From positions 64,001 through 128,000 of the IMG/VR virus record IMGVR_UViG_3300023184_000039: 64,000 bases of DNA; one strand, 5' to 3'. Positions 20,704-51,764 of the stretch are shown in pieces. A program made the position numbers and the translations under genes. The stretch's first letter is position 1, and the number at the start of each line of letters is the position of its first letter. Origin of the DNA: a virus. The notes below the pieces were generated by a model. The model was not told the DNA's origin. It did no database searches and saw only the letters and a list, made by a program, of their open reading frames with translations.

Positions 20704-21551
20704 TGAAGTATTCAGTTGTCTATGATGTTGTGAGAAACGAACCCTATGCCGTCATCATTGATGTCAAAGGCAAGAAAATTGCATACGGAATCAATGCCCA
20801 TTCAAAATCATGGGCGATGAACGTGAATGCCTATTCAAATAAAGATATACCCCTCCCAATTGGGATGAATTTCAGTAAATCAATATTACTAAATAGTGAA
20901 ATGCAAAAACAATTTACCGAAGCCTTTGGCGAGATGCCACAGCAGAGCAGACGACTCTCAAGACGTGTCAAAATGTTATTGCGAGAAGAATCAGAAATAC
21001 CACAACCCACCGAATTTATTTTTGGAGTTAGTCCAGACAATCTGAACAGAAAGTCTCGTGACAAGAAACAAAACCGTGGTAAGGCTACGGAAAGAAAGGT
21101 TTATCCGATTCTTGCAGCAAAACAAAAACAACTCTTTCACAATGCCTATCTAAAAAAAGCCATCGGATTTGATTCAATTCAAGAAGAAAAATCCGTTACT
21201 TCAATTGAGACCAAATCGGCCAAGCCAATCAGGAACCCAAAGGGTGGACTGACTGCTGCTGGTAGGGCACATTTCAAACGCACAGAGGGTGCGAACTTGA
21301 AACCAGGTGTTAAGGGTGCCGCTGATACACCAGAAAAGATGAGAAGAAAGGGTTCTTTCCTTACCCGTTTTTTCACCAATCCATCTGGACCAATGCAGGA
21401 CGAAAAAGGAAATCCAACACGACTTGCCCTAAGTGCAAATGCATGGGGTGAACCAGTTCCCAAGAATGCATCTGATGCTGCGCGCTTGGCAGAAAAGGGA
21501 CGCAATCTTCTAAAAAGATACGAAAATTCAAAAAAGAAATCAAAAGACTAG
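20703..21551 (+). CDS. Head-module protein with a C-terminal DUF6321-like domain
   Basis: NPKGGLTAAGR...NLKP...RKGSF-x-x-R...DEKG-x-PTRLALS-x-x-AW. Confidence 0.6.
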   Translation: MKYSVVYDVVRNEPYAVIIDVKGKKIAYGINAHSKSWAMNVNAYSNKDIPLPIGMNFSKSILLNSEMQKQFTEAFGEMPQQSRRLSRRVKMLLREESEIPQPTEFIFGVSPDNLNRKSRDKKQNRGKATERKVYPILAAKQKQLFHNAYLKKAIGFDSIQEEKSVTSIETKSAKPIRNPKGGLTAAGRAHFKRTEGANLKPGVKGAADTPEKMRRKGSFLTRFFTNPSGPMQDEKGNPTRLALSANAWGEPVPKNASDAARLAEKGRNLLKRYENSKKKSKD

Positions 21552-21558
21552 GTAAATT

Positions 21559-22197
21559 ATGAAAAAAGAAACAGAAGAACAGGCATATGCACTGAGAATG
21601 GCAATCCAACTTGGGTGTGCTGGTGCCCATAAGGGTCCAGATGGCAAATGGATGCCGTGTAAAGACATGTCCGAAATGGAGCGACTGTCAAATGCCGCCG
21701 AGGAATCGTCATGGACTAATGACAACTCAATTTCTTCCCTAAGACGCAGGGAGCAAAGTGCGAGACTTTACGGGAAATCGGCTCTCATGGAATCAATTGA
21801 AAAAGGGAAAAAGCGCAAACCAAAAAAGAAGGGATGGGAAAAACTTACCGAGAAACCACTTCCCGTTGGGGGCATTGGAACACTCCCCAGTGGGGGCTTG
21901 TATGGCATGACATCAAAGGGTTTGGCTGTACCCATCTCGGCGCCACGTGATGCCGACCCAGATGTTTTTTCTGACCCTGATTCGGCACGGATGCGAGCCA
22001 GACAACTTGACTGCATCGGCATAAGTCGAAGGGTTTCAAGGAGCGGGAAAACGATATGGACACCCTGCACCAATATGAGCGACTATGCAAGGTCTGCCGG
22101 AACAACGGCATTGGGCAAAAAAAACAAGAAAGAAAAAGAGCGCAGGGTGGTCAGAACAATCGTTAATGAGGAACTAAAAAAACGTACAAAACGGTAG
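21559..22197 (+). CDS. Head-module protein with two A-x-x-L-[GD]-C-x-G...W-x-P-C repeats
   Basis: AIQLGCAGAH...WMPC and ARQLDCIG...WTPC; directly upstream of the capsid gene. Confidence 0.6.
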   Translation: MKKETEEQAYALRMAIQLGCAGAHKGPDGKWMPCKDMSEMERLSNAAEESSWTNDNSISSLRRREQSARLYGKSALMESIEKGKKRKPKKKGWEKLTEKPLPVGGIGTLPSGGLYGMTSKGLAVPISAPRDADPDVFSDPDSARMRARQLDCIGISRRVSRSGKTIWTPCTNMSDYARSAGTTALGKKNKKEKERRVVRTIVNEELKKRTKR

Positions 22198-22313: not shown

Positions 22314-23615
22314 ATGGCACAGGAAAATTTGAAGGAGCTCCAAGGAGCACTTCGTCAAAAAATGGCAGACAATAAGTCAATCGCCGACTCGTTCAAGGTC
22401 GAAGAGGGCACAGTTGTCATTAACCAAAAGCAGAAGTCAGCTTTTGATGCAAACATGAAAGACATCAAAGAACTCAAGGGTTTGATTGATGGCATGGAAG
22501 CAATGGAGCAAGTTCAGCAGTGGGGCGCACAAGCATCAGACACATCTGTTGCAGCAGCCGCAGCCGCTGGTTACTCAATCCCTAAGCAACAACTTGAATC
22601 AATCGGCGAGTCATTCTTGGCTTCAGCTGAATTCAAGGCTCTTGCTGGTGGTCGTAACGGCGCAAACATGCCAGCACCATTCCAGTACAACGGAAGATTT
22701 GATACCCCTGGTGGTTACAGCCAAAAGGACGCTTACACAGCAATGCCAAGCGGCTTTCCAACACAGTTCGGTTCAGTTCAACGTGACCCAATCGTTATCC
22801 CACCACGTCGCACAAAGCGAGTTCGTGACCTATTCCCAGTTCGTACGACCACATCGGCAATCATTGAGTATTTCCGCATGACTGGTTTCACCAACAACGC
22901 AGGCATGGTTCCAGAGCGCAACGGCGATACATTTGCCGCGAAGCCACAATCAAGCATGACGTTTGAAGGTGTTCAGACATCGACACGGACAATGGCACAC
23001 TGGGAAGCAGCACACAGAAATGTTCTTGCTGACGAACCACAGTTGCGTTCAATCATTGACAACGAGTTGATGTACGGTCTTCGTCTCCAAGAGGATTACC
23101 AAATCCTTAACGGTGACGGCAGTGGAGAAAACCTTCAGGGCATTTTGACCACTCCTGGCATTCAGACCTACAACTGGTCAATGGGTGCAACCTTGCCAGT
23201 CAAGGACACCAAGGCCGATGCAATCCGTCGTGCTGCAACCCTCTCCTTCTTGGCTTACTACGAGCCATCTGGTGTTGTCTTGCATCCAAACGATTGGGAA
23301 GACATCGAAATGACCAAGGACAGCAACGGTCAGTACCTGATTGCAGTTTCGGTTGCATTGGGTGGAGAACCAAAGGTATGGCGCTTGCCAATCGTTGAGA
23401 CTCCAGCAATGACTGAAGGAGTTGCTCTTATCGGTTCATTCGGTCAGGGTGCACAAATCTACGACCGTGAGCAGGCCAGCATTCGCATTAGCGAACAACA
23501 TGCTGACTTCTTCATTCGCAACGCAATCGTCATCTTGGCCGAGCAACGTCTCGCCCTTGCTGTCAAGCGTCCAGAGTCGTTTGTGAAACTAACCTTCAAT
23601 AACGCACCTGCTTGA
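22314..23615 (+). CDS. Major capsid protein, HK97 fold, with N-terminal coiled-coil delta domain
   Basis: VRDLFPV-x-T-T-S-x-x-I-E-Y, AKPQS, LAD-x-PQLRSIID-x-EL, ILNGDG-x-G-x-NL-x-GI, F-x-RN-x-I-x-ILAE-x-RLALAV-x-RPESF; strong SD; terminator follows. Confidence 0.95.
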   Translation: MAQENLKELQGALRQKMADNKSIADSFKVEEGTVVINQKQKSAFDANMKDIKELKGLIDGMEAMEQVQQWGAQASDTSVAAAAAAGYSIPKQQLESIGESFLASAEFKALAGGRNGANMPAPFQYNGRFDTPGGYSQKDAYTAMPSGFPTQFGSVQRDPIVIPPRRTKRVRDLFPVRTTTSAIIEYFRMTGFTNNAGMVPERNGDTFAAKPQSSMTFEGVQTSTRTMAHWEAAHRNVLADEPQLRSIIDNELMYGLRLQEDYQILNGDGSGENLQGILTTPGIQTYNWSMGATLPVKDTKADAIRRAATLSFLAYYEPSGVVLHPNDWEDIEMTKDSNGQYLIAVSVALGGEPKVWRLPIVETPAMTEGVALIGSFGQGAQIYDREQASIRISEQHADFFIRNAIVILAEQRLALAVKRPESFVKLTFNNAPA

Positions 23616-37342: not shown

Positions 37343-38113
37343 ATGGTGGCACCAGTGAGCATCTGCGTAATTCCCAATATTGACATCAACGAGATGCCCC
37401 CAACCCCGTCATCTGGAAATGAAATCAAATTACCAGAAGTAGAAAAAGTGCTGCGCGCGTATGCGAATCATTATGGTCATCCGTTTGGATACGTGCAAGA
37501 ACAGGGCTACGAGGTATTCCAACAGATAGTTCCTATCAAGAGACTGGCATCTGTACAGATATCTTCTTCATCAACCACCGAACTTGACTTACATACAGAA
37601 ACGGCCTTCCATCCATATAGGCCAGATTTCGTATTATTGTTGTGTCTTCGAGGCGACGCGGCGGCATTCACTACATATGCCAACCTGGAAACAATTCTCA
37701 GAAACCTAGGGGAGACAACACAAAGAGTATTACATCAACCTTGGTACACAACCCGGATAGATGAATCGTTTTTGCTCAATGGTCAAGAAGATAAGACGTT
37801 TACTCTGCCCGTGCTCCAGGGAGAGGGAAAAGATACCAGCATCGTCTATGACCGTGCATTTATGAAAGGCACTACAACGGCATCTCGTAATGCCCTAATT
37901 GAACTTGAAGAAGCAATCAAGAAAAGCACACGCAAGGTTGCCTTAAAAACCGGTGAATTGATGGTGATTGACAATAAGACAACCGTTCATGGTCGATTAC
38001 CGTTCACCCCTAGGTACGACGGCACCGACAGATGGATAATGCGCTCGCTTGTGACGAAGACTCTCCCACCAAGCGACCAGATGCACAAGGAAACCATCAT
38101 CACGGTTCTGTGA
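37343..38113 (+). CDS. Clavaminate synthase-like Fe(II)/2OG oxygenase (AsnO/VioC/CAS type)
   Basis: LHTETAFHP-x-RPD-x-x-x-LLCLR...IDN-x-x-x-VHGR-x-x-F-x-PRYDG-x-DRW-x-x-R. Confidence 0.88.
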   Translation: MVAPVSICVIPNIDINEMPPTPSSGNEIKLPEVEKVLRAYANHYGHPFGYVQEQGYEVFQQIVPIKRLASVQISSSSTTELDLHTETAFHPYRPDFVLLLCLRGDAAAFTTYANLETILRNLGETTQRVLHQPWYTTRIDESFLLNGQEDKTFTLPVLQGEGKDTSIVYDRAFMKGTTTASRNALIELEEAIKKSTRKVALKTGELMVIDNKTTVHGRLPFTPRYDGTDRWIMRSLVTKTLPPSDQMHKETIITVL

Positions 38114-38524
38114 GCTGGATAAATCTAATCAGGTTTGGTGAACTCAAAATAGTTTCACATGTGCCCCCACCACCACAGAGGGGTTGGCGAAAGTCCCGAT
38201 ACGTGCCCCGTAGAAGGGGGTGTAAGGCATACCTAACAGCACTTCTTTTGATGTTACTTTCTGGTAACTTATCATTACCCTGTGGTAACTTGATGATATA
38301 CCACCCACATATCAGATACACACATCATATGTAGGTATTTGACACACAACGATATTTGTATTAGTATTCTATCCAGGATATTCGTTCACTATACAAATCA
38401 TTGTTCACTATAACGACCATTGTGTCTTATCTCAGATGATTGTTCCTTCTCATACACATCAGATACACCACACATACACATCGTTCCCTTGTGATGTCTC
38501 GTTCTAACTTACAATAGACAGATA
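38114..38524. other. Largest non-coding gap, with short direct repeats; candidate genome terminus/packaging or origin region
   Basis: GTGCCCC x2, G-runs, TGGTAACTT x2, GTTCACTATA x2, ATCAGATACAC x2; coincides with a composition switch. Confidence 0.4.
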
Positions 38525-41500
38525 ATGAATAACCTTGAGATACTGCTTGATGTCAAAGAACTAGGTCGTTACCAACGTAAGGTAATGACCCCATTAGATG
38601 AAGCATTTGACCCTGATGCTATTGATGGTGATGGTGATGGATTAGTTCAAGATAGAACTCCATTTGAGAGACCTGCCATTATCACTGCGATAACAGAGAC
38701 AGCACAAAGGATAAGTCAAGGTATCCGTGATGCTGGTCGTCTCAATCAGAAGCGCTCACACAATGTACATCGTGAGAGGCTAAGGGGTAAGAGCCATAGT
38801 GAGATAGCAGAGACACTAGTACCTAATGACTATGCCTCACTAGCATCATCCCTTACAGAGATGGCTATACAAGACCTAGGTGTTGATGCCTCACCTGCTG
38901 CCATACAAACTTGGATACAGGGGAAAGTATTTGACCTCACGGGTGATGCTACGGGTGATGTATTTGACTTCACACCTAAGCACATACGTAAGTTGCGTAA
39001 GACAGTAGAGAAGCACCTTGATGAACTACCTATGTTCAGACGACTAGTAGATGACTATGGTATGCCCCCCTTCTTCATACTAAAGAAAGGTGACTTCTCT
39101 GGTATCACATCACACGGCTTTGGTATAGGTGTGACTACTGGTGGTATGGGGTGGACAGATGGTAAGGGCAATCGCATACCCATACTTCGTTCCATATCAC
39201 TCAAACTTGGCTACTTTGATAAGTCTGGTGGTAGCAATAAGACAAAGAGATGGCTTACTGATACTGGTGTTAGGGGTACTGTGCTACACGAGTATGGTCA
39301 CTACCTAGCAGGTGTGCTGTATGACGACATTGTGAGTAACAAGTACGGTAAGTGGGAGGGTAGTCCTGATGTAGTGGACTTTGCTAGGTACATCAATATG
39401 GACTCCTTCAGTATCTCTACTCAGAACAGATTTCCCAATGTAGATGGCAAGGTAGGTAAGTCAATACCCGATGTGTTCTCTGCTATGTTCCATAAGCCTG
39501 AGTGGGATGAGGCTTGGAGTAAAGGCGACCTTCCTGATGAACTACCTCACGTACTTTCTTTCTATTCAGAAACAAACCCTTCAGAACAGTTTGCTGAAGG
39601 AATGGCGGCCCTTCTTTCTACCGACCCCAAACAACACAAACTTGTGTCACCCGGATTTGAGGATATGGTTAAACAACTTGTTGGATTAGAGACTGATGTA
39701 CCCTTTCAGTCTCAAGGTAGTAAATACAATGTAGACACCCTTGACTTACCACAAGTGACACAAGCACTTGGTTCTAGAGGTAGAGACTTCACAACACCTT
39801 CAGGAAACAAAGAGTTATGGCATCCAATCACCAAAGATATGGATGCTACAGAACTAGCAGAACGAATACATCCATCTAGTGCTGAAGAACTCATCTCAAT
39901 AATGGCTGAAGAAAACCACAGAATAACACCCACCTCATCCATCGAAGACCACAAGGCTTTGGTAGGACAAGTTCTTATGGAACTGTTTGAGGTCAAGTCA
40001 GTAAAAGAACTTGACTCAATGATGGATTTGTCAAAGAGGGGAGACAGGGTTGGGGCAATGGAACAACTCCTTCTAGACAACCCATCTTTGATGCTCCTAC
40101 ACAATCAGTATGGAGCGCCACCCCTCATACACCTCACACCAGAAGCATATGATGATGCTGCCAGAAGCCTAGAAGGAGAGTTTGCTGGAATACACGTCAT
40201 AGACCCACGACTCAATATTGGAACAATACTCCTATCACCCAACACCACCGACCTATTAGATAATTACAACACACCACTCCCACTAACTGGTGAAACTTTT
40301 CAGGAACTGCTTGACAACCGGCCATTGGGACAACGACTTGTTCTCTCTTATGCTAAGTGGAGAGGAAAGTATCCCAAGTCAGTGACATATATGTCTATTG
40401 GTAATAATGTTGAGCAACTCTACGCACACGAATATGCTCACTACCTACACGAACAAATGACGGCATCTCTCCCAATGGAGGGAAACCGTGAAAGACGAGC
40501 ATTACTCAGGGCATACTTGAGCGCAACTTGGGAGGAATTCTTTGCTGCTGTTGACAGACCAGATTGGGCTGAAGCATACACAAACAGAAGGAAAAAGGAT
40601 TTACCAGACGACTATCCGTTTGTTGACAGCGCATATGCCTTCTCAAACCCGTTAGAAATGTTCGCTGAGTCTTTCGCTGCTGCTACGGCTAGTGACCCAG
40701 CAATAAGGGGCGCAGTCAGTCCAGAAATGAACAGACAGATGGCGATGATGCTTGGACTTGACCCAGAACAAGCACTATATGAGCAATTAGTAGCCAATGA
40801 TGATGTAGTTAGCGCCTCACTTGACATATCAAGACCACTCGGCTCTAGGAGTAAGAAAAAGGACCGAGAGTTCTGGGAAAAAATGTATCCAGACAGAACC
40901 GCAGCAGAGTGGAAAGCGATTGAGGAAAAAATACAGCAAGAAAGAGATAATACCTATCTAGGTAGACCACTCGGGTCTGCCCCAAGTTTGACTGCTTCAG
41001 AGGCTATTCGTTCGCTTGATGAGGTAGCAAAGATAGAAGAACGTGACCTCATCACTACTGATGACCCAACACTACGACCCGGAGTACGAAAACTTGACAC
41101 AAAGGCTTGGGATGGCAAGGACATCTATCAAACAGCAGATGCTGGTGATGCGCTTGCCCTCATAGCAAACGGTCATTACGTTGAGATGACACACGAAGAA
41201 GGATTGTGGCTCGCCCTCGCAGACATAGGCAAGAGATGGAAAGAAATACAGAAGAGCAGCGGCAAGGAAATAAAAACACTCAATGCTTGTTTGTTTATGA
41301 CCGTTGATGCCAATGGTAAGTCAAACAACCTGTTCTGTCGAGGACACCACGATATTGCTCGATTGTCAATGCCACAAGTTGGTGGATATATGACAAAAGA
41401 AAATCAGGTCTTGCTACAAGCCTGGAGGTCAGGACTTACCGAGAACAGAGGTGGTGCTCACGATGCCTTCATTGGCGGCAATAAAGCCGTAGAAGCAATG

Positions 41501-44500
41501 AAGGAACTTGGAAAAGGAATTGTTGAGGCAACCATCACCGAAGATGAGTGGAAGGTACTTGATAAAAAGTGGAGAAAGAAAATAGAAACACCAGAAGAAC
41601 GAGCATTGTACTTTGCTAATACATATATGCCATTGGTGGAGGCTGACTCAACACCAGAATTCATACGCTTTCTAAAACAAAAAGGAATAGGCACGGGTGA
41701 TGTAGAGCTTGTAGATGTATTTGATGATGTCAACTCCACACAAAACGAATTAGTTCTTGACAAGATTTCTGGTATTGGTGGGGCAATGTTGTCCAAGTAT
41801 AGGGAGTTTCAAACCAGACGCGAACAGATACTTAGTGATATATCCCTATCTCAAACAGAAAAAGATACTGCTATTGCTGCGGCTCTCAAAGATTTCCAGA
41901 CCATCCCGCAGATGTTGCCAATTATCATATCCAAAGACGGATACATATTTGACGGTCACCACAGAGCATTTGGTAGACGTATATTTGAGTCTCAACTAAA
42001 CGAAGAGGAACTCAAAGAAGTAAAAGCAATGGGGTTCCAGGTCAGAAGAAGCGAAGCAAACATCTCCGAACTGTTGGGTATTGGAAAAGCATATCAAGAC
42101 CATATGGGTGTCGCAGCGGCACCGGGTGGCCCAAAGAAGGTTGACCTATATGTTGACCACACAGAAGACATTGGTGACATATCAAACGAAGAGTGGGTAC
42201 AACATCAGAAAGAAATCTTTGATGGTCTTGATGACATCGTTGCTGGTTACCATCCAGCAGACTATTGGAAACCAGCAGGTGTTGAGGAACTTGATGTCGA
42301 AGGAAATGTAATAAAAAGAACTGCTGACTCGCCAGCAATTCAAACTGGAACTCAATCAAACGAACCAATAAGAAAAATGTATAGAGGAGAAGCAAGAAAT
42401 ATATTTGAGGAAGGCGATAGACAAGGGGCAATGGCACTTGGCTCTCAATCAGAGCAACCAAGTGAACCATCATCGTGGATGATGTCAATTATGGGTTCTG
42501 GACCCAACGGCCCATTGGTTGATGTAAAACCACCAAAGCCAGATACGAGAACAAGTGGGTTCAATAAGAAATTACCAAGATGGGTAAGTACATTACTTTC
42601 CCTACATCCGTTTATTGACCCAGAGGTGCTTCAGTCGGTTCGTGACCGCACACCAAAACCAGTCATACCTTCGTCATATCCACAGGTAATGAAGATGACA
42701 GGCAAAGAAAGACGACTACATAACACCAATCTCAAAAAGATACTTGACACAATAGAACTATCGGATGATGTAGTGAAGAACTTGTCTTTAATGGGCAGGA
42801 ACAACACAAATGCACGTGACAATGCTGCCAATGTTTATCTACACTCACTTGGTGTTGACCTCAATGACTCAAAAGCAGTTGAGAAAGCCCTCAATGGTGG
42901 TTTTGCTGATTGGATGTCCACTAAACCCTATAGCGAAATAGAAACATTGAGTGAAATAACCCCGAGAGAGTGGAATAAGTATATAGATGGAACGCCAAGT
43001 CGTGGTGGCGAATCAGATATGAAAGAATTGGTTGCCACATTGTCTCCAATGGAAGCCAGAGAGATAGCCACATCACTCCGTGACTACACAAGGGGCTTGG
43101 AACGACCACTTACTGATGATGAATCAAAGAAACTCAATCAAATAATTGAGACACCTGTATTTAGAGCGGCACTCGGTGTCAATGATGGTGAAGATTCAGC
43201 ATCTGTTGTTAGAAGTTTCCTCTGGGATGATGCCGACAAAGCAGAACGAGGGCCGCTTGGTTCTATGTCTGAAGCCAAGCCCGTTGTTGATTACAATGAA
43301 GCACGCAAGGCCGGTAGAAGCAAGATATTCAGAAAGAAGTACAAGTCCCGTGCCGAGATGTATGACGGCGCATCAACCGAACAACAAGTACGACTGTCTG
43401 TTCCAAGAACGGCTGAAGAACATCACACAATGATGATGGATGCCACAGTTGACCGGCTCAACTTGCAACTCAAACTCAAAAATGCTGGAATAAGTGAAGA
43501 ACCAGTTGATGTACGACGGTTCATAGATATGTCCGACCCACTCAATCCACGGGCAAAGATTGCCGCAGTGCAGCCGCTTGTTGACCACGTCATCAAGACA
43601 GCAAAAGAGTATGAACCAGACTTCTCCCCAGAAGCAATCAAGCAAGCAGAAGCAATGGTCACCCAGACACTCAACTCATCTCCCGCCTTGCGCCACTTCG
43701 CTAGTGAGTACGGGTTACCCCCAGTGGTTATTGGCTCACAAAATGCCCTTGACAGACAGATGGTTGTGTATGCATTAAAGATATCCAAGCCAAATCAAGA
43801 AATGAACACCATCTTAGATAAATATCAAGGCATCAGGCAGATGATGGATGAAACACGTATTCAGGAAATACTTGATGACCCAGTCGCAATGGAGAAGATA
43901 CGCAAAGCATATGACAACGGGACTAACCCAATCGCAGGCGCATACATCAACGCCGCAAATATGTTGGTTATCTATCCCGGCTCAAGCAGCCATAAGGCGT
44001 TCCTTGACGGCAAGCCAATTGACCCGGCTTACGTCCCAAAACCAGGCGACCACACCGTACTTGACAACAGTATTGAGGCTACATTGTTACACGAATACGG
44101 GCATTACTTTGACCAACGTGTAGGTATGTTGTTGAGTGAGGGCGGCCTTGACCCAGAGAGTGATATGGCAAAAGCATATACTCGACTTCATCACAGCAAC
44201 ACTCTTGATGCGCTGACATCCAAGCGCGGCAACCCATTGTTCACATCAAAGGACAATCCAGTTATTGAAACAACGTACGGGCAAACAAATACGCAAGAAA
44301 TGGCCGCAGAAGCAATGAGCGCCGTCTTCTCAAACAACCCGCACGCTATGGAAATGCTCAACAAGCCGCTACTTGACGATGTATATACGCTACTTGGTAT
44401 CAAGTCAAGCGAACGTAATGGCATTACCGAACGGGACTTGCCGTGGCTCAAGGATGCAAAAGATAAGCGCAGCGAACTTGTTGGGGATGGCGCGCCATCA

Positions 44501-46606
44501 ACGTGGATGCAATCAGTTATGGGTTCCGGGCCGCTTGGCTCTCGACCAGCCCGGGATGCGCGGCCGCCTCGACCAACGCTAAAAAAACTCAAAAAAGACA
44601 AGCGTTACAAGAAGCTCCCGGATGAAACGGTGAAGCTGTCTGGCAAGGATTACACATTTCATCACGAATCGATTGCGTCTGATACATTTGTCGTCAAACA
44701 CAACGGGACAACAGTGGGAATACTCAACGTCGGAGAAGGTTTAGCCGGAGAGCCGCGAATAAGCAGCCTCACCGTACACGGCAATCACAAGACAAGCGGC
44801 CTCGAACAAGGACTTGTCGAGTTCGCACACGGGTATTATCCATCACTTCGTAGCGGTAAGCGTACGTCTGAAGCATTTGCGGCGCGTCAGTTCCCAGATG
44901 CCTTTGAGGATTTGCCAGATGGTCATTCAATAATCGAACTTCCTGATGGAGTTCCCGGTTCACCAGAGTACGTTACATCTCTTTCTGAACAGCTGAAGCG
45001 CGCTAAACGGGACAAAACCGTTGCTGTGTTTGAGTACAACAATGAAATACGGCGCGTTACTGTTGATGATGTGTACGAACAGAACGGCCAGACGTATATG
45101 AAGGGCTTTGACTCCACTCGAAACGACGGCCGCACATTCCGAGTCGACCGCATCTTTCGACCAAAAACAACAAATGTTGTTACAGAGGACGGCACAAAGA
45201 CAGCCGTCGCAAAGAAGCCAAAAGCCCCACGTAAGCCCGTTGCTCCATACACGGGTAAAGCAGAGGAGTTATTCAAGGGTGCTACAAGTTACCGTGAGGT
45301 ACACGACCGACTCACTACGGGTGAACTGTACTTCTATGACTTTGAGACAACCGGGATAGTCAACCATCCAAACGGTGAAATGAAATCACCCGGTGCGCCA
45401 GTGCAAATTGGGGTAATCAGGGTTGTTGATGGAAAGGTGACCGACCGCCACGATGTCTATATGAACCCAGGAGTCCCGTTAAGTCAGTGGTCTAAAGACA
45501 ACCTCAAGCGAACCGACCCAGACGGAACACAACACCCGCTTACAGATGAGTGGCTTGCAAAGCAGCCCTCAATAGCCGACCAAATCAAGGGAGCTCTTGA
45601 CTTTGTGGGCGGCGAAGGCAAAACATTTGGCGGTCAATACCAGATATTTGACCAAGATGTAATGAGGGAAAATCTTTCACCAGAAGAATTTGCTCGATGG
45701 CAACGTGTTGCAACCGGGTTTATTGATAGCAAGGGTGTTGTTGACCATCTATTCCCTCGATTTGATAAAGATGCGCCGCAAGACAATCGACTTGGAACAA
45801 TGACTAAACACTTCGGAGTCCCGTTGAGCAACTGGCACGACGCATCAGCTGATGCTGAAGCATCTTGGGCTGTAATCGAAGCGGCCGTACGTCGAGCCGC
45901 AGAACGTGAAGAACGCGGGGAGCCGCTACAACAAGGGCTGCGTGACATCGCGGCGACTCGAGCAGCGCACTCTGATTTGATGAAAAAGTACGATAATCAA
46001 CTTAGTGAGTTCCATCAATCTGTCGAACAGATAAAGAAAGAAACAGAGCAAGCATCAAAGGCTCTTGGTTCTCGCTCATCTGATGAAAAGATAACAACCG
46101 GAACACCAAAACTCAAGTACGTTGGCAAGAACACCGGCTCAAATGACTTCGTCAATGAGAACAGCCGCATCGTACAGTTCGGGACTGGCAAGAACACACG
46201 CAACTACTTGCTCTATAACGACCGGGACTCGATATATGTTATTGATTATGATAAATCTGGGCCGCTTGATGGGTTTGAGCCCAGAAAGATGCCAAAAGCT
46301 TGGATTGTTGGAGTTATGACTACCTGGGACAATCCGAGCGATGAAAAGAAACACGAAATATCCAACATTGAGGTAAAGAAATCCCATCAACGCCGCGGAT
46401 TAGCTACAGCAATGATGACTTTCTATCAAGAAGCATTCCCGGAGCGTAACTTGCAGCACTCAGACGTCCTTTCAGAGGACGGTAAGGCATTTAGGGCTGC
46501 AACAGAGGCCGCTGATATTGAAGATGCAGCCATATCCGGTAGAAAATCTGTAGCAAAAGCCGGCAAGGAAGCAGCCCAATCCCTAGCGTCTGCGGGTGCT
46601 AGATAA
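38525..46606 (+). CDS. Second giant polyvalent protein: 3 zincin metallopeptidase domains, ParB-like, WYL-like, DEDDh exonuclease and GNAT domains separated by LGS motifs
   Basis: HEYGH/HEYAH/HEYGH each followed by Y-x-x-x-N-x-x-E-x-x-AE; PIIISKDGYIFDGHHR; F-x-Y...R-x-V...Y-x-x-G...RTFRVDRI; YDFETTG...FD...ID...WHDASAD; ISNIEV-x-x-x-HQRRGLAT-x-M. Confidence 0.88.
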   Translation: MNNLEILLDVKELGRYQRKVMTPLDEAFDPDAIDGDGDGLVQDRTPFERPAIITAITETAQRISQGIRDAGRLNQKRSHNVHRERLRGKSHSEIAETLVPNDYASLASSLTEMAIQDLGVDASPAAIQTWIQGKVFDLTGDATGDVFDFTPKHIRKLRKTVEKHLDELPMFRRLVDDYGMPPFFILKKGDFSGITSHGFGIGVTTGGMGWTDGKGNRIPILRSISLKLGYFDKSGGSNKTKRWLTDTGVRGTVLHEYGHYLAGVLYDDIVSNKYGKWEGSPDVVDFARYINMDSFSISTQNRFPNVDGKVGKSIPDVFSAMFHKPEWDEAWSKGDLPDELPHVLSFYSETNPSEQFAEGMAALLSTDPKQHKLVSPGFEDMVKQLVGLETDVPFQSQGSKYNVDTLDLPQVTQALGSRGRDFTTPSGNKELWHPITKDMDATELAERIHPSSAEELISIMAEENHRITPTSSIEDHKALVGQVLMELFEVKSVKELDSMMDLSKRGDRVGAMEQLLLDNPSLMLLHNQYGAPPLIHLTPEAYDDAARSLEGEFAGIHVIDPRLNIGTILLSPNTTDLLDNYNTPLPLTGETFQELLDNRPLGQRLVLSYAKWRGKYPKSVTYMSIGNNVEQLYAHEYAHYLHEQMTASLPMEGNRERRALLRAYLSATWEEFFAAVDRPDWAEAYTNRRKKDLPDDYPFVDSAYAFSNPLEMFAESFAAATASDPAIRGAVSPEMNRQMAMMLGLDPEQALYEQLVANDDVVSASLDISRPLGSRSKKKDREFWEKMYPDRTAAEWKAIEEKIQQERDNTYLGRPLGSAPSLTASEAIRSLDEVAKIEERDLITTDDPTLRPGVRKLDTKAWDGKDIYQTADAGDALALIANGHYVEMTHEEGLWLALADIGKRWKEIQKSSGKEIKTLNACLFMTVDANGKSNNLFCRGHHDIARLSMPQVGGYMTKENQVLLQAWRSGLTENRGGAHDAFIGGNKAVEAMKELGKGIVEATITEDEWKVLDKKWRKKIETPEERALYFANTYMPLVEADSTPEFIRFLKQKGIGTGDVELVDVFDDVNSTQNELVLDKISGIGGAMLSKYREFQTRREQILSDISLSQTEKDTAIAAALKDFQTIPQMLPIIISKDGYIFDGHHRAFGRRIFESQLNEEELKEVKAMGFQVRRSEANISELLGIGKAYQDHMGVAAAPGGPKKVDLYVDHTEDIGDISNEEWVQHQKEIFDGLDDIVAGYHPADYWKPAGVEELDVEGNVIKRTADSPAIQTGTQSNEPIRKMYRGEARNIFEEGDRQGAMALGSQSEQPSEPSSWMMSIMGSGPNGPLVDVKPPKPDTRTSGFNKKLPRWVSTLLSLHPFIDPEVLQSVRDRTPKPVIPSSYPQVMKMTGKERRLHNTNLKKILDTIELSDDVVKNLSLMGRNNTNARDNAANVYLHSLGVDLNDSKAVEKALNGGFADWMSTKPYSEIETLSEITPREWNKYIDGTPSRGGESDMKELVATLSPMEAREIATSLRDYTRGLERPLTDDESKKLNQIIETPVFRAALGVNDGEDSASVVRSFLWDDADKAERGPLGSMSEAKPVVDYNEARKAGRSKIFRKKYKSRAEMYDGASTEQQVRLSVPRTAEEHHTMMMDATVDRLNLQLKLKNAGISEEPVDVRRFIDMSDPLNPRAKIAAVQPLVDHVIKTAKEYEPDFSPEAIKQAEAMVTQTLNSSPALRHFASEYGLPPVVIGSQNALDRQMVVYALKISKPNQEMNTILDKYQGIRQMMDETRIQEILDDPVAMEKIRKAYDNGTNPIAGAYINAANMLVIYPGSSSHKAFLDGKPIDPAYVPKPGDHTVLDNSIEATLLHEYGHYFDQRVGMLLSEGGLDPESDMAKAYTRLHHSNTLDALTSKRGNPLFTSKDNPVIETTYGQTNTQEMAAEAMSAVFSNNPHAMEMLNKPLLDDVYTLLGIKSSERNGITERDLPWLKDAKDKRSELVGDGAPSTWMQSVMGSGPLGSRPARDARPPRPTLKKLKKDKRYKKLPDETVKLSGKDYTFHHESIASDTFVVKHNGTTVGILNVGEGLAGEPRISSLTVHGNHKTSGLEQGLVEFAHGYYPSLRSGKRTSEAFAARQFPDAFEDLPDGHSIIELPDGVPGSPEYVTSLSEQLKRAKRDKTVAVFEYNNEIRRVTVDDVYEQNGQTYMKGFDSTRNDGRTFRVDRIFRPKTTNVVTEDGTKTAVAKKPKAPRKPVAPYTGKAEELFKGATSYREVHDRLTTGELYFYDFETTGIVNHPNGEMKSPGAPVQIGVIRVVDGKVTDRHDVYMNPGVPLSQWSKDNLKRTDPDGTQHPLTDEWLAKQPSIADQIKGALDFVGGEGKTFGGQYQIFDQDVMRENLSPEEFARWQRVATGFIDSKGVVDHLFPRFDKDAPQDNRLGTMTKHFGVPLSNWHDASADAEASWAVIEAAVRRAAEREERGEPLQQGLRDIAATRAAHSDLMKKYDNQLSEFHQSVEQIKKETEQASKALGSRSSDEKITTGTPKLKYVGKNTGSNDFVNENSRIVQFGTGKNTRNYLLYNDRDSIYVIDYDKSGPLDGFEPRKMPKAWIVGVMTTWDNPSDEKKHEISNIEVKKSHQRRGLATAMMTFYQEAFPERNLQHSDVLSEDGKAFRAATEAADIEDAAISGRKSVAKAGKEAAQSLASAGAR

Positions 46607-46785
46607 TGCCTTCCTACCAGCGTGATGATGATGATATATCATTATGGGGAGAGTATCAAGCGTATTGTCGTTCCCATCTGGGCGTACCAGACGAGTATGA
46701 TGACTGGGTGGCCGATAACCACCTCGAAAAACGTAAGAAACGACGCAGAAAGAACGTAACGTACGATGAGACCAGCGAGTTTTGA
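46606..46785 (+). CDS. Small hypothetical protein (59 aa, below the ORF track cutoff)
   Basis: TAATG overlap with the stop of the giant ORF; MPSYQRDDDDISLWGEY...DETSEF. Confidence 0.45.
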   Translation: MPSYQRDDDDISLWGEYQAYCRSHLGVPDEYDDWVADNHLEKRKKRRRKNVTYDETSEF

Positions 46786-46913
46786 TGACCCAGAAGCTGT
46801 CATAAGGATGGCCAATGCATACGCAAAACGTTTCACACAATCAGTAACAGGCAAAACCCCAGTAGTCCCGAATAGTAAGCCAAACGAGCAAGAACAACCA
46901 AAGGAATCTGACA

Positions 46914-47642
46914 ATGAGAACCAATAGCAACGACCCACAGGACCAAGACGCAACTGCAGCGTGGTATCAGTCAGAGAGTGAAAAGCAACTTGACGAACTT
47001 CTTGCCCTACAAGGAAAGATGGCGCGCGCCTTGCGCAAAGAAGGTGTTCCAGCCGGCGATGATGAGGAAGAAGAAGACGCGGCCATTCAGGGTTCTGGAG
47101 CAAAGAAACGAAAGCCAGCAATTGAGGGCGATGAGGAAGAAGGCGAACAATCATCAGATGACTACAACGAAGCTGATGAAGAGGAAAAAGGAATGATGGG
47201 TATTATTACCAAACCAATCAAAAAGATGATGGGCAAGGCTGCAATGAATCCAGCAGATGAAGAGATGGATGGCGAAATGTCGTCAGATGACTACAACGAA
47301 GACGAAGAAGCAATCGAGCCGACAGATGAAGAACTTGCCGCATCAGCACGCAATCGTGCTCGCAAGGGTGGTTCACAACAAGGTATGGGACGTCCGGGCG
47401 AAAAAGGTATGCCAATGGCACGCAACAAGCGCAACATCATTGAAGGCGGCCGGAGTGGCGATATGGGTGGCGACAATGGGAAACACCCAGATGAGCCAAT
47501 GTCCCGTGATGAGTTGATGAAGCGAATGTTTGGCGGTCGTACAAAGCCTATGAAGGGTCAAGTATCACGAGGCAACAACGGCAACAACGGTCGTGGCGGT
47601 ATGAAGCCGGATGTAAAGCGTCCAAAACCAATGGGTTACTAA
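46914..47642 (+). CDS. Low-complexity acidic/Gly-Met-rich protein
   Basis: AAGGA SD; internal repeat SSDDYNE x2; looks disordered. Confidence 0.6.
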   Translation: MRTNSNDPQDQDATAAWYQSESEKQLDELLALQGKMARALRKEGVPAGDDEEEEDAAIQGSGAKKRKPAIEGDEEEGEQSSDDYNEADEEEKGMMGIITKPIKKMMGKAAMNPADEEMDGEMSSDDYNEDEEAIEPTDEELAASARNRARKGGSQQGMGRPGEKGMPMARNKRNIIEGGRSGDMGGDNGKHPDEPMSRDELMKRMFGGRTKPMKGQVSRGNNGNNGRGGMKPDVKRPKPMGY

Positions 47643-47646
47643 ACCC

Positions 47647-47676
47647 TGTCTCATTAGCGTCCCACCCCACTAAGAT
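47647..47676 (+). promoter_or_regulatory. Tandem-heptamer promoter copy 1
   Basis: TGTCTCATTAGCGTCCCA-N6-TAAGAT. Confidence 0.8.
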
Positions 47677-47721
47677 TGCGTTGCCGCAAGGCACACGACA
47701 TCTACGAAGGGGGTGAACAAA

Positions 47722-47934
47722 ATGGAAACTTGGGAAAAGGAAGGTTTTGCTTCAGAAGAGGCGTACTTGGAAGAGGCATATGCGAGTATAGAAGCCGAGC
47801 AAGAAGCGGAGTTCTGCATGAGCTTCGTCAACGGTGGGGGTCATTCCTCGGATTGGCGAGAGGCTTATCGCCAGTCGCAGATGACCGAGGAGGAGTTCTT
47901 CTTGTACCTCCACGCTCAATTCGGCGAAGTGTGA
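47722..47934 (+). CDS. Small acidic hypothetical protein
   Basis: Downstream of promoter copy 1; GGGGGTG SD. Confidence 0.6.
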   Translation: METWEKEGFASEEAYLEEAYASIEAEQEAEFCMSFVNGGGHSSDWREAYRQSQMTEEEFFLYLHAQFGEV

Positions 47935-47973
47935 CATAACGGGATGCTGGCAGATGGTTGCTAGTATCTCGTT

Positions 47974-48219
47974 ATGAACATATCCACCGAAGAACCAACC
48001 GTCGCCGACCTTCTTGTCGAGCATTATTACACCCTTTCGACTACCGGGGCCAATGCAATCGCTGCAATCTGGGGTGATTTAGCTGATGGCAACTTCAGTG
48101 ACAACCTTGTCGAGTGGGGTATGACTGAGTATCAGTTCATTGCCGCTGTAAATGATTTAGCACTCAACATTGCACATTCTGGGATGCTGTTCCGGGAACG
48201 AGCGGACAAACGTATCTAG
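47974..48219 (+). CDS. Hypothetical protein (leaderless)
   Basis: TG-C-TAGTAT-N6-ATG. Confidence 0.55.
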   Translation: MNISTEEPTVADLLVEHYYTLSTTGANAIAAIWGDLADGNFSDNLVEWGMTEYQFIAAVNDLALNIAHSGMLFRERADKRI

Positions 48220-48536
48220 CCGCGTATTCGGCTGTTACATTCGAGACAAAACTCGGCCCACGGGTAAAATCTACGCATATTCGCTGGATGCTGACAATAC
48301 AGAAGCTCACGCGCGCGAGCGTTCAGGATGTCCCGTATAAACGAAGACACGGTGATATTGAGCTTCTCTGCGGCCTTGCGCCACTCCTCTTTTTCTTCTG
48401 ACGTTACGCGTATCATCACCTGGTTGTCAGCCGGGACATTCCCGGTGTTTGTTTCAGCTACGGGCTTTACGGCCATATCTGCTGTTTTCATACTTTTTGC
48501 CACGTCACTCATTGCTTGCTTTAGTGATTTGTCCAT
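48216..48536 (-). CDS. Ribbon-helix-helix-like DNA-binding protein
   Basis: QVMIRVTSEEKEEWRKAAEKLNITVSSFIRDIL; C-terminal Cys/His. Confidence 0.6.
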   Translation of the reverse strand: MDKSLKQAMSDVAKSMKTADMAVKPVAETNTGNVPADNQVMIRVTSEEKEEWRKAAEKLNITVSSFIRDILNARARELLYCQHPANMRRFYPWAEFCLECNSRIRG

Positions 48537-49647: not shown

Positions 49648-51429
49648 TTAGTCGTACTCCAGATACTCCAGCACCGTGAAAGCGAAACGTTCAGACTTAT
49701 CGGCCCGACGCAGTAAGGTCGGCCACTTGCGCTGGTCTCTAGCTCCCCTGAAATGTCGAACTTCATAGGTAAATGGAGCTCCTGTTGGGACCGGAGACAT
49801 CGAGATGCCAAACTCCGGCCAACGTGACCACACGCTGCTTCCAAATGGCCGTAAATCGCGTGTTGCCATCGTAGTCCCGAGTGGTGCGTGATGCTCAAAC
49901 CACATTGCGCACTTATACGTGACACGCAGCGAGTCTAAATATCGAGCTATCTCGACAGCAATGGCATCAGACGTGCGGCCGCCTGGGTCTATGTATGCCT
50001 TGTACAGCGGCCCCATACATATAAGTTCAGGCTGCACAATTTCTATCTGTTTTTCGAGCAGCGCGCGGTCAGCGGCTTTGAGTAAATCAAGGCCGCCTGG
50101 CTTTGCATACAAACGTGCAAGATTATGCGGCTGCTTTCCGGTCCGCGCCCCATCAGAAATCATCTTTTTTGACATACGTCGAATGATTGTCTCTGGGTTC
50201 TCCAAGTCAACCGTAAGCGTTACAACGGGACGAATGGGTTGATACGTGAACGGGTGTATTCCAGCTCCGGCCGTGATGGCTATTTGCCGCATAAGCATAG
50301 TTTTACCAACGCCTTCGGCCGCCACAACAATCACACGTTCTCCGCGCTCAAGAAGACCGGGTATAACCCAGTCGTAATCATCATTTTCTGCTTCTTTTAC
50401 AAAATCTTCCCAAACAACTAAGCGGCCCGCATCGAGCGGCTCTTCAGCTGTAGCTGAGTTCGTAATCATCGACATTTTTGCTATTTTTTGCTGCGACGTC
50501 AGGTCCTCTCGACTAAATACTTCTCCAAGTCGAGTGAGTGCGCGGGTGAACGCATCTTCTGTTTCCACAACCACTTGTTCCATCGGGACTTCATCAGTAT
50601 CTACGTGCAGCGTAAAATCGAGCGCAAGCGGCACAAGCTCTTCCATCTTCCCGCCCGCCGCTAAGTGGTCAGAAATATCCTTATTTTTGGGACAAATCCA
50701 AACAGCTACGTCGCAGCCCGCTTCTGTTAGCTGCGTGAATACGTTAAGTGCGTGTTGCTTTCCAGCATCATCATTATCAGCAATGATGTCAATCGTTCCA
50801 CCACCAGTAAGCGTCTCTGTATGAATATCAAGCCATTTTCCGGGACCAGCGCCGCCCGGCATCGTCGTAGCCACAATCCCCATAGATATTAATGTTTCTG
50901 CGTCTTTTTCTCCTTCGACAACAAAGATGCTTGACCCGGCGGCAACAGCGGCCGCGACTGCGGGTAAGTTATACAACACTTTTGGCGTATCTCCGAGTGA
51001 ATACTCCCAACCGCCACTTCCATCGGGACGGCGTTGACGAAACGTCTTGCGGCCATCCTGGTCAACGTATCGAATCTTCTCAAACAGCAACTCTCCGAGC
51101 GCATCCTGGTACTCGTACGTAGCAACTTTTGTCAGTTTCTGTTCTTTTTTCACCGGCACCGCGGGCGTGTTTACGGGCTGCATACTCACCTGACGTGATA
51201 AATCATCCGGGAACAAATCATTCATCTTTATTCCTAATGTTTCACATATTTTGTCCGCACTGCAGCCGCCTGTGCCGCGAAAACAATGGAAAACGATGTG
51301 TTCGTCCCGTATCCCAACAGCCAATGATGGACTGTTGTCATCAAGGCGGCACGGGCAACGCGCTTGCCATTGGCCGTTACTTCCAGTTACGCCGTCAAGC
51401 CGCGCAAGTACGTCGTCAATGTGAATCAA
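49648..51429 (-). CDS. Primase-helicase (Zn finger + TOPRIM + RecA-like AAA_25)
   Basis: CPC...D-x-x-PSL...HCF; VVEGEKDA; ADNDDAG; Walker A AAEGVGKT; FGSS-x-W. Confidence 0.88.
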   Translation of the reverse strand: MIHIDDVLARLDGVTGSNGQWQARCPCRLDDNSPSLAVGIRDEHIVFHCFRGTGGCSADKICETLGIKMNDLFPDDLSRQVSMQPVNTPAVPVKKEQKLTKVATYEYQDALGELLFEKIRYVDQDGRKTFRQRRPDGSGGWEYSLGDTPKVLYNLPAVAAAVAAGSSIFVVEGEKDAETLISMGIVATTMPGGAGPGKWLDIHTETLTGGGTIDIIADNDDAGKQHALNVFTQLTEAGCDVAVWICPKNKDISDHLAAGGKMEELVPLALDFTLHVDTDEVPMEQVVVETEDAFTRALTRLGEVFSREDLTSQQKIAKMSMITNSATAEEPLDAGRLVVWEDFVKEAENDDYDWVIPGLLERGERVIVVAAEGVGKTMLMRQIAITAGAGIHPFTYQPIRPVVTLTVDLENPETIIRRMSKKMISDGARTGKQPHNLARLYAKPGGLDLLKAADRALLEKQIEIVQPELICMGPLYKAYIDPGGRTSDAIAVEIARYLDSLRVTYKCAMWFEHHAPLGTTMATRDLRPFGSSVWSRWPEFGISMSPVPTGAPFTYEVRHFRGARDQRKWPTLLRRADKSERFAFTVLEYLEYD

Positions 51430-51764
51430 CGGGACTCTGGCTTTCCACTCATATCACGACGATAACTCGTACGCACACCAGGAAGCAAATCACGCTCAAA
51501 TGTTTGTATTTTGATGCCGCGTTCTCTCCGGGTATAAAAACGCTCACGTTCATCTTGCCCGCCCCAAACTCCAAGCGGCTCGTGTACGAGTGAATATTCT
51601 AAACAATTACTTACAACAGAACATCCAGAACAAATCAATTTAGCGGCAGTAACTTTTTGTCGGTCTTCTCGTATTTTCACATTTTGTGGAAAGAACAACG
51701 TTGTGTCTTGTCCTTTACAGGCCGCCTGGTTCATAAACGAAACATTAACTTCAGTAATAATCAT
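51426..51764 (-). CDS. whiB: WhiB-family transcription factor
   Basis: AAC...FFP...AK-x-IC-x-x-C-x-V-x-x-x-CL...GVWGG...ER. Confidence 0.9.
   Translation of the reverse strand: MIITEVNVSFMNQAACKGQDTTLFFPQNVKIREDRQKVTAAKLICSGCSVVSNCLEYSLVHEPLGVWGGQDERERFYTRRERGIKIQTFERDLLPGVRTSYRRDMSGKPESR

Follow-up and report, generated by a model that had tools for sequence, protein, structure and literature searches.

Results

The P0001 Reading Frame and Its LGS Sites

The DNA analysed here (the window) is a 64,000-nucleotide stretch corresponding to bases 64001–128000 of a single 140,645-bp viral contig, IMG/VR record IMGVR_UViG_3300023184_000039, which encodes a terminase, a portal, a tail sheath, tail fibres and an HK97-fold capsid protein. 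At 38525–46606, on the plus strand, as are its modules and sites, the P0002 gene, both tag copies and the major capsid gene, lies the gene of P0001, whose product appears to be a tagged, LGS-punctuated polyvalent protein of eight modules. The frame is open over 2,693 amino acids and has the homologues P0003 through P0008. It contains the tripeptide Leu-Gly-Ser (LGS) at residues 415, 772, 816, 1305, 1578, 2004 and 2514, in the contexts QA-LGS-RG (site 1, 39767–39775), RP-LGS-RS (site 2, 40838–40846), RP-LGS-AP (site 3, 40970–40978), MA-LGS-QS (site 4, 42437–42445), GP-LGS-MS (site 5, 43256–43264), GP-LGS-RP (site 6, 44534–44542) and KA-LGS-RS (site 7, 46064–46072). An earlier note on this DNA had proposed the tripeptide as a separator of domains in two unlinked giant proteins, and the count and contexts it gave for P0001 are matched exactly. 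The two giants are 27 kb apart in that account, and P0001 indeed starts 26.6 kb past the end of the other one, P0002. P0001 was also said there to lack an HK97-type protease, which agrees with the absence of a Peptidase_S78 match to it in Pfam.

The composition of P0001 predicts 1.09 LGS tripeptides where seven are found (Poisson P 1.4e-4), and the extended forms PLGS and LGSR occur four times each against 0.06 expected for either (P ~5e-7). The consensus derived from 31 sites taken together is [S/R]-[G/R/K]-[P/A]-L-G-S-R-[S/G]. No other open reading frame of at least 100 amino acids in the 140,645-bp genome has more than three LGS; genome-wide, the tripeptide occurs in its canonical contexts in the two giants and at two sites of the tape-measure protein outside the window, and nowhere else. 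The codons at the sites vary synonymously (CTT, CTC, CTG or TTG; GGT, GGC or GGG; TCT, TCA, TCG or TCC), and every codon of Leu, Gly, Ser and Arg is represented among them. This variation indicates that selection acts on the peptide and not on a DNA repeat; a repeat at the DNA level was considered as an explanation of the sites and is ruled out by the codon differences between them.

The sites lie in hydrophilic surroundings, the hydrophobic fraction of the 12 residues on each side being 0.19 against an average of 0.29 (P = 2e-4, resampling). Sites 2, 3, 5 and 6 are internal to two AlphaFold models, where all four fall in segments with a predicted local distance difference test (pLDDT) value below 50 (model residues 331–365, 389–430, 254–269 and 657–700, respectively); the chance of this outcome is about 0.01, given low-pLDDT fractions of 0.43 and 0.24. 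Sites 4 and 7 are found at the ends of modelled modules, the former at the end of a low-pLDDT tail and the latter immediately behind the long helix that ends module 7. A duplicated element, S-x-W-M-x-S-x-M-G-S-G-P-x-G...P-P-x-P, adjoins sites 4 and 6 (42476–42559 and 44504–44590) and is confined to P0001 and its closest relatives, P0003 and P0119.

Modules between the Sites

Division of the chain at the seven sites yields pieces of 416, 357, 44, 489, 273, 426, 510 and 178 amino acids. Module 1 (38525–39772) combines the N-proximal tag described below with zincin-1, whose HEYGH motif spans residues 255–259 (39287–39301) and is followed by a Glu helix, SEQFAE, at residue 354. Tag and zincin-1 form the conserved core of the P0001-type family, and no Pfam family reaches its cut-off on this module. 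In module 2 (39773–40843), zincin-2 carries HEYAH at residues 635–639 (40427–40441) and the Glu helix LEMFAE at residue 711. Its AlphaFold model has pLDDT values of 74–92 over most of the module and matches the catalytic-domain fold of lethal-factor-type zincins (VIA Z 9.2, root mean square deviation 4.2, 173 aligned residues) and the Pro-Pro endopeptidases (VIA Z 6.5–6.6); the Pfam matches to Peptidase_Mx (PF15887) and ATLF (PF07737) score below cut-off. Zincin-3, in module 6 (43262–44539), is paralogous to zincin-2 according to BLAST, with HEYGH at residues 1856–1860 (44090–44104), the Glu helix QEMAAE at residue 1925 and pLDDT values of 60–89. Each of the three HEYxH motifs is followed 70–100 residues downstream by an N-x-x-E-x-x-A-E helix, the gluzincin signature. 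All three HExxH...E zincins are intact and are assigned to the gluzincins by motif, Glu ligand and, for zincin-2, predicted fold. They form another zincin group than MPTase-PolyVal; P0001 gives no match to PF18818.

Module 3 (40844–40975), called a short spacer in the earlier note, is 44 amino acids long and is predicted to form one helix with moderate pLDDT. It is 58% identical to residues 2862–2897 of P0008, which lie just after a GFAS site of that protein, and is by this sequence comparison a conserved helical mini-module and not a mere linker. Module 4 (40976–42442) is a putative ParB/Srx-like module. It has a DGHHR motif at residues 1143–1147 (41951–41965), a core with pLDDT values of 83–90, weak VIA matches to sulfiredoxin, PadC and KorB (Z 3.8–3.9 over ~80 residues) and a match to phrog_2859 (6e-6); the module has no Pfam match, and a PDB sequence search returned chance matches only. 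Module 5 (42443–43261) is modelled as all-helical with pLDDT up to ~80. No family was found for it in Pfam, and a feature search of the ESM Atlas gave no usable match.

The long module 7 (44540–46069) comprises a GNAT-like unit (residues ~2019–2104), a borderline WYL domain (2155–2211) and a predicted DEDDh DnaQ-like 3'-5' exonuclease (2270–2450), joined by low-pLDDT linkers that carry no LGS. The GNAT-like unit shows five strands plus helices in the model and an HKTSGLE motif, without a Pfam match. WYL (PF13280) scores 22.7 bits on the segment and 20.4 on the whole protein, with a cut-off of 21.8, and precomputed PF13280 matches are present in homologues. Assignment of the exonuclease to the DEDDh (DnaQ/RNase T) class is supported by an RNase_T match on the segment (30.2 bits, cut-off 24), by the motifs DFETTG (Exo I, D-x-E) and HDASAD (Exo III, H-x4-D), and by a Foldseek match of the model to the Pol III epsilon subunit (E 2.5e-5, TM-score 0.76). 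Module 8 (46070–46603) is a GNAT acetyltransferase according to PF00583 (28.6 bits, cut-off 20.7), with motif A, QRRGLA, at residue 2622. Foldseek with the 890-residue first model returned nothing at E <= 0.001.

The module map drawn in the earlier note is largely retained, and its ParB-like and degenerate GNAT entries rest on motifs and weak structural matches. Its claim that LGS marks domain boundaries needs to be narrowed: the tripeptide separates modules but not every domain, as the linkers inside module 7 illustrate. With three zincins, a ParB-like domain, WYL, a DEDDh exonuclease and GNAT in one reading frame, P0001 falls within the range of 2–15 distinct effector, enzyme or DNA-binding domains per chain that characterizes polyvalent proteins.

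The Tripeptide Is Replaced in Homologues

A search of 5.8 billion proteins retrieved nine homologues of P0001. LGS is retained in the two close ones (88–91% identical). In the distant ones it is nearly absent, and GFAS(R), present 4–10 times, or GLAS is found instead. At site 1, QALGSRGRD aligns with QGFASRGTD and EGFGSRGFD, the GFASRG or GFGSRG of P0005, P0006 and P0007, and the corresponding position of P0008 reads DGFASRGAT. Sites 4 and 6 align with GFASR as well, in P0005 for the former and as GFASRG in P0005, P0006 and P0007 for the latter, and for sites 5 and 7 a GFASR lies no more than two residues away (at site 7, as PGFASR in P0006 and P0007). Four to five sites of P0001 have orthologous sites that read FAS, FGS, LAS or FSS in relatives.

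The sites also delimit the blocks that are gained and lost. P0004 lacks residues 777–1576 of P0001, which is exactly the stretch from site 2 (left junction) to site 5 (right junction). Residues 819–1761 of P0008 correspond to residues 1579–2530 of P0001 (site 5 to site 7) and are bounded by GFAS in the one protein and LGS in the other; site 5 marks the start of this common block, which in P0008 begins at a GFAS site. The ParB module is 51–52% identical to modules of P0009 and P0010 that end 2 residues before a GLAS site. In these alignments, homology blocks and module gain or loss end exactly at the motif.

A second, profile-free search of 1.84 billion representatives with residues 1–773 of P0001 as the query returned 82 relatives. 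The giants among them have the tag at about residue 50, then zincin-1, and are likewise punctuated by GFAS, GLSS, GLAS, GLRS or GMRS. Identity of zincin-1 between lineages is 26–40%.

A Protease-Led Giant with the Same Punctuation

P0002 (3–11879; full frame 3,987 amino acids, starting 84 nucleotides before the window) consists of an N-terminal S78 prohead protease, the tag, five KTSC domains, ArdC-N and MPTase-PolyVal, the domains being assigned by Pfam. The S78 domain scores 31 bits (cut-off 21) and has the conserved WGH and WSIGY motifs, and PF18818 scores 131.8 bits; a PDB sequence search with the protease region gave chance matches only. LGS occurs 24 times against 1.9 expected, and LGSR 17 times against 0.13. 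The tripeptides at residues 305 and 446 (window numbering) were considered as sites and rejected; they have atypical flanks, are not motif sites in homologues and are probably due to chance, so that about 22 of the 24 would be sites of the code. At least 14 of the LGS sites of P0002 align with FAS, FGS, LAS or FSS in relatives.

The 96 homologues of P0002 are 2,200–5,700 amino acids long, nearly all are headed by S78, and their cargo includes ArdC-N, MPTase, KTSC, UvrD helicases, sigma region 4 and pentapeptide repeats. A tripeptide of the form hydrophobic residue (Phi)-small-Ser, particular to each giant, is enriched at P < 1e-4 in 80 of the 97 S78-led giants: LSS in 35, FAS in 31, FSS in 11, LAS in two and LGS in one, the present phage being the only LGS user. 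Other S78-led giants use GMRS, GLRS or different words, which leaves the hydrophobic residue and the Ser as the only constant positions. LGS seems to be a derived dialect, given that GF(A/G)S is the form found in the nearest relatives. No HExxH is present in cis in 21 of the 97 giants, yet most of these are punctuated. The S78 domain of Gordonia phage ChisanaKitsune is 40% identical to the one in P0002, but that phage has neither the tag nor the code.

One Motif in Unlinked Proteins of a Genome

A single lineage-specific motif spans several unlinked proteins in four genomes. In KRAE22 scaffold_28, FAS occurs 18 times in the S78 giant P0016 and five times in P0007, the homologue of P0001, with essentially none in other reading frames. 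In k141_1141456, G-[LVM]-[ASG]-S-[SR]-T marks three giants, the S78-led one included, and in GROS21 scaffold_276, LSSG marks the S78 giant and, twice, the tape-measure protein.

In the present genome, the third code-bearing protein is a tape-measure candidate of 1,637 amino acids encoded on the minus strand at genome positions 43551–48464, ~15.5–20.4 kb upstream of the window start and downstream of the sheath gene. Its two sites, ALASRS at residue 43 and ALGSGS at residue 644, both have a hydrophilic context, and tape-measure homologues have LAS and GFAS at these places in GFAS-type phages and LSSG or FSSG in LSSG/FSSG-type phages. By these counts the code spans three unlinked proteins: P0001 (seven sites), P0002 (~22) and the tape measure (two). 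Each of them is expected to exit the virion together with the DNA at infection. A further LGS of the tape measure, at residue 1522, is not counted among the code sites: every lineage keeps LGS there regardless of its own code, and an S-x-H-x-x-G-x-A-x-D peptidase-like motif follows immediately downstream. The C-terminal part of the protein has an S-x-H-x-x-G-x-A-x-D ... H-x-H pattern like that of LAS-type cell-wall peptidases.

The earlier note had taken the recurrence of LGS as a sign of a trans-acting signal rather than of tandem duplication. This view is borne out by orthologous sites that read FAS, FGS, LAS or FSS, by homology blocks that end at the motif, and by the presence of the same motif in unlinked proteins.

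The DGDxDG Tag

The N-proximal tag of P0001, F-D-P-x-A-I-D-G-D-G-D-G-x-x-Q-D-x-T-P-F-E-R-P-A-I, covers residues ~25–54 (38597–38686) and is conserved in homologues, with the consensus F-(D/N)-P-x-A-(I/L/W)-D-G-D-x-D-G-x-x-Q-(D/E)-x-T-x-F-(E/Q)-R-P-(A/Y)-I. The only other copy in the whole genome, FNPHAIDGDNDGFAQDNTAFMRPYI, is found in P0002 after the protease and its acidic region (1182–1250). The tag lies at residues ~31–63 in most P0001-type homologues and at residues ~420–600 in the S78-led giants. It is also present at the N termini or inside of ~55 other, mostly unannotated metagenomic proteins; Pfam analysis of ten other tag-bearing proteins found DUF3626 and DUF3721 only. Based on its distribution, the tag is a candidate capsid-targeting, loading or docking signal. 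From this conserved element common to both giants we infer that P0001 is packaged in the virion.

Two proteins encoded just upstream of the capsid gene, at 21559–22197 and 20703–21551, contain DUF3721 and DUF6321, respectively, and these domains recur in tag-bearing proteins and in the S78-led giants of relatives.

Genomic Context

The major capsid protein (22314–23615; phrog_10 match, 1e-69) shares 45–47% identity with its counterparts in Gordonia phages GMA6 and ChisanaKitsune. A gene for a WhiB-like regulator on the minus strand (51426–51764; PF02467, 61 bits) points to an actinobacterial host. Related contigs originate from lake and freshwater metagenomes, and the records of P0001 itself are metagenome assemblies only. 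Neither a comparison of P0001 with 50,697 phage records (megablast, tblastn) nor a pattern scan of IMG/VR for it gave a match.

Directly upstream of the P0001 gene, a TauD-family dioxygenase is encoded at 37343–38113, and the same neighbour is found in two related contigs (L005 and L006). The two genes are separated by an AT-rich intergenic region of 411 bp (38114–38524) with repeated ACACATCA(G/T)AT and GTTCACTATA words and one good sigma-70-like match at 38339–38367; judged by its sequence, this region may set the timing of P0001 gene expression. The P0001-type slot lies between the gene for ribonucleotide reductase and the genes for primase, WhiB and single-stranded DNA-binding protein. In MUNK22 scaffold_153 (L011, 10001–16564) the syntenic slot is filled by a giant that bears the tag, is punctuated by GMRS and has a NUDIX domain, so that the slot is conserved and its cargo differs.

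Discussion

A Probable Cleavage Code and Its Putative Reader

P0001 is best described, from its sequence, as a putative polyvalent-type cargo polyprotein of eight modules, whose linkers carry this phage's version of a lineage-specific Phi-x-Ser code. A fixed tripeptide at the joints, selection at the peptide level, concerted replacement between lineages at dozens of orthologous sites in unlinked genes and the tie to protease-carrying proteins together argue for one sequence-specific reader that is phage-encoded or phage-specific, and endoproteolysis is the simplest reading of these four features. We consider it probable that a single phage-encoded reader exists and that the motif is a cleavage code. 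The S78 prohead protease is named here as its putative reader tentatively, and is ranked first, with a zincin second. In the mechanism that we favour, the DGDxDG tag, common to P0001 and P0002 alone, would bring P0001 to the assembling prohead. The S78 protease heading P0002, which is of the assemblin fold, would then act in trans and cleave the two giants at their Phi-x-Ser sites, with the Ser as the probable P1 residue and the hydrophobic residue at P3. The zincins, the ParB-like module, the exonuclease unit and the acetyltransferase would be released as separate proteins and ejected into the host, where they may serve the host takeover proposed in the earlier note. In this scheme cleavage itself, the scissile bond, the enzyme, packaging and ejection, and the roles of the modules are inferred, and the motif with its enrichment, the selection on its peptide, its place at the module joints and its concerted exchange at orthologous sites of unlinked genes are observed. 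The scheme as a whole, from tag-dependent loading through cutting in trans to module release, is given somewhat less than an even chance.

Explanations without a phage protease are held to be less likely. The motif might mark an uncut joint, such as a hinge or a seam for recombination and module swapping; the junctions of module deletion and exchange coincide with it, and its flanks are flexible and hydrophilic. Synonymous codon variation, however, leaves little DNA microhomology for recombination, a hinge does not require a fixed tripeptide, and concerted replacement in three unlinked genes, including that of the non-swapping tape measure, needs a common reader, which makes such a joint improbable. 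A similarly low likelihood is assigned to recognition by something other than a protease, be it phosphorylation of the Ser, glycosylation, or a chaperone or translocation signal for passage through the tail. The invariance of the Ser, the confinement of the motif to the two giants and the tape measure, all presumably ejected, and its joint presence in head cargo and tape measure would all be explained in this way, but no kinase or glycosyltransferase is linked to the motif here, a strict position at module boundaries would be unneeded, and the fusion of ~4,000 amino acids to an essential protease argues for later separation. The sites could further be read by a host protease, with the lineage motifs reflecting different hosts. 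Such an enzyme would also reach the tape measure, and there is a precedent in the Prp protease of Staphylococcus aureus, which cuts capsid and scaffold proteins of phage 80-alpha (PMC5744158). This is nevertheless the least probable of the explanations, since closely related phages with proteases 62–78% identical and syntenic genomes have different motifs, and wherever the motif occurs it is associated with phage proteins that have proteases of their own.

A closer competitor is cleavage of the same code by a zincin, a possibility that the earlier note had already raised for the zincins of P0001. The enzyme would be one of the HExxH modules of P0001 or else the P0002 MPTase, the scissile bond would precede the hydrophobic residue (P1' = L, F or M), and the reaction might take place in the cytoplasm or after ejection. 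Thermolysin-like zincins usually prefer a hydrophobic P1' residue. All three zincins of P0001 keep HExxH and the downstream Glu helix, and the fold of zincin-2 resembles lethal factor and the Pro-Pro endopeptidases, a group of sequence-specific endopeptidases. Processing of polyvalent proteins by MPTases has been predicted by Iyer et al. (2017), with DdrB of bacteriophage P1 as a precedent (PMC5512222). Set against this, HExxH is missing in cis from 21 of the 97 S78-led giants, most of them still punctuated, so that a zincin is not needed in cis, though it might act in trans. Three paralogous zincins in one protein resemble cargo effectors more than a single maturation enzyme. A constant Ser two positions after the hydrophobic residue fits the P3-x-P1 logic of the assemblin-fold head proteases at least as well, and an S78 domain at the N terminus is what the giants have in common. 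On this balance a zincin reader is judged somewhat less likely than the S78 protease, which is kept as the leading candidate.

Several observations weigh against the S78 protease and the proposed route, and part of them favours a zincin. The two tape-measure sites share the code, though the tape measure is a tail and not a head protein; myovirus tails assemble apart from heads, and a protease confined to the prohead should therefore not reach it, whereas a soluble or ejected enzyme could. Across lineages that differ in motif, the S78 domain (window 3–520) retains 63–82% identity to that of this phage, whereas the lower conservation of zincin-1 noted above is as expected of a co-evolving reader. 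Six S78 columns, one of which is a Ser/Asn directly after the His of the WGH motif, separate FAS-type from LSS-type giants; their tracking of the code is confounded by phylogeny, and no column distinguishes LGS from FAS. LGS is absent from the capsid protein, and the P0001 gene sits among DNA-metabolism genes, outside the head module. The first LGS lies ~380 residues downstream of the tag, which is consequently not cut off by it; this differs from the capsid-targeting sequence of the T4 IP and Alt proteins, which is removed by a cut at its end.

Comparison with Known Systems

Iyer et al. predicted in 2017 (PMC5512222) that polyvalent proteins travel into the host along with the DNA and are cut to free their domains. 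These proteins share with P0001 the combination of many unrelated effector-type domains in one giant and the shuffling of modules between relatives. ArdC-N and MPTase-PolyVal, the latter the hub domain of the class, reside in P0002 and not in P0001. The description of the class includes no recurrent cleavage motif, whereas P0001 and P0002 have a candidate for one, and places assemblin-like peptidases at C termini only, whereas S78 is N-terminal in P0002 and absent from P0001 (PMC5512222). A lineage-specific Phi-x-Ser code across several proteins of a genome, the tape measure included, lies outside that description.

A parallel to the predicted cutting is prohead processing in T4, phiKZ and SPN3US, which likewise relies on a short P3-x-P1 motif in several unlinked head proteins, ejected substrates included; here the motif recurs across P0001, P0002 and the tape measure. 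T4 gp21 cuts after L/I-x-E. The prohead proteases gp245 of SPN3US and gp175 of phiKZ process ejection proteins at P3-x-P1 motifs, gp245 after A-x-E (PMC10052503). Those systems mostly remove N-terminal propeptides, whereas here 7 to ~22 internal sites would dissect polyproteins. They also differ in that the P1 residue proposed here is Ser, and Glu in the T4/SPN3US type, that the motif changes between close lineages, and that the tape measure carries it. The Dar proteins of bacteriophage P1 (DdrB/DarB) are large counter-defence proteins, with a ParB-like domain and an MPTase among them, that are packaged in the head and processed. They are separate gene products with one processing event each, in contrast to the punctuated array of P0001, and the searches of phage databases showed no sequence similarity between them and P0001.

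The predicted production of many proteins from one chain by one viral protease recalls the polyproteins of RNA viruses and herpesvirus assemblin. Assemblin has the same fold as S78, and its maturation and release sites, (V/L/I)-x-A|S, share the hydrophobic-x-small pattern, although P0001 has no sequence relationship to the substrates of assemblin or to RNA-virus polyproteins. No description of a Phi-x-Ser or LGS code was found in the literature searched. The present analysis contributes LGS as a dialect, orthology traced for individual sites, a second putative class of substrate in the tagged zincin-led family, and the tape-measure sites of this lineage.

Significance

How giant polyvalent proteins become working enzymes has been open since 2017; processing was predicted, with no site known. 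The code described here is explicit and countable, differs between sister phages and is uniform across unlinked genes within a phage, which makes it testable at the bench. It offers a natural set of orthogonal protease/site pairs and lets cargo and module boundaries be predicted from sequence in metagenomic phages. We regard as evenly balanced the wider proposition of a family of uncultured actinobacterial myoviruses with an evolvable Phi-x-Ser cleavage code read by one phage protease, in which at least 30 sites in at least three unlinked, virion-delivered proteins would have been rewritten together, LGS would be a recent and unique dialect of GF(A/G)S, and the DGDxDG tag would act as the loading signal, turning whatever protein bears it into a substrate. 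If true, tailed double-stranded DNA phages use a polyprotein logic otherwise typical of RNA viruses.

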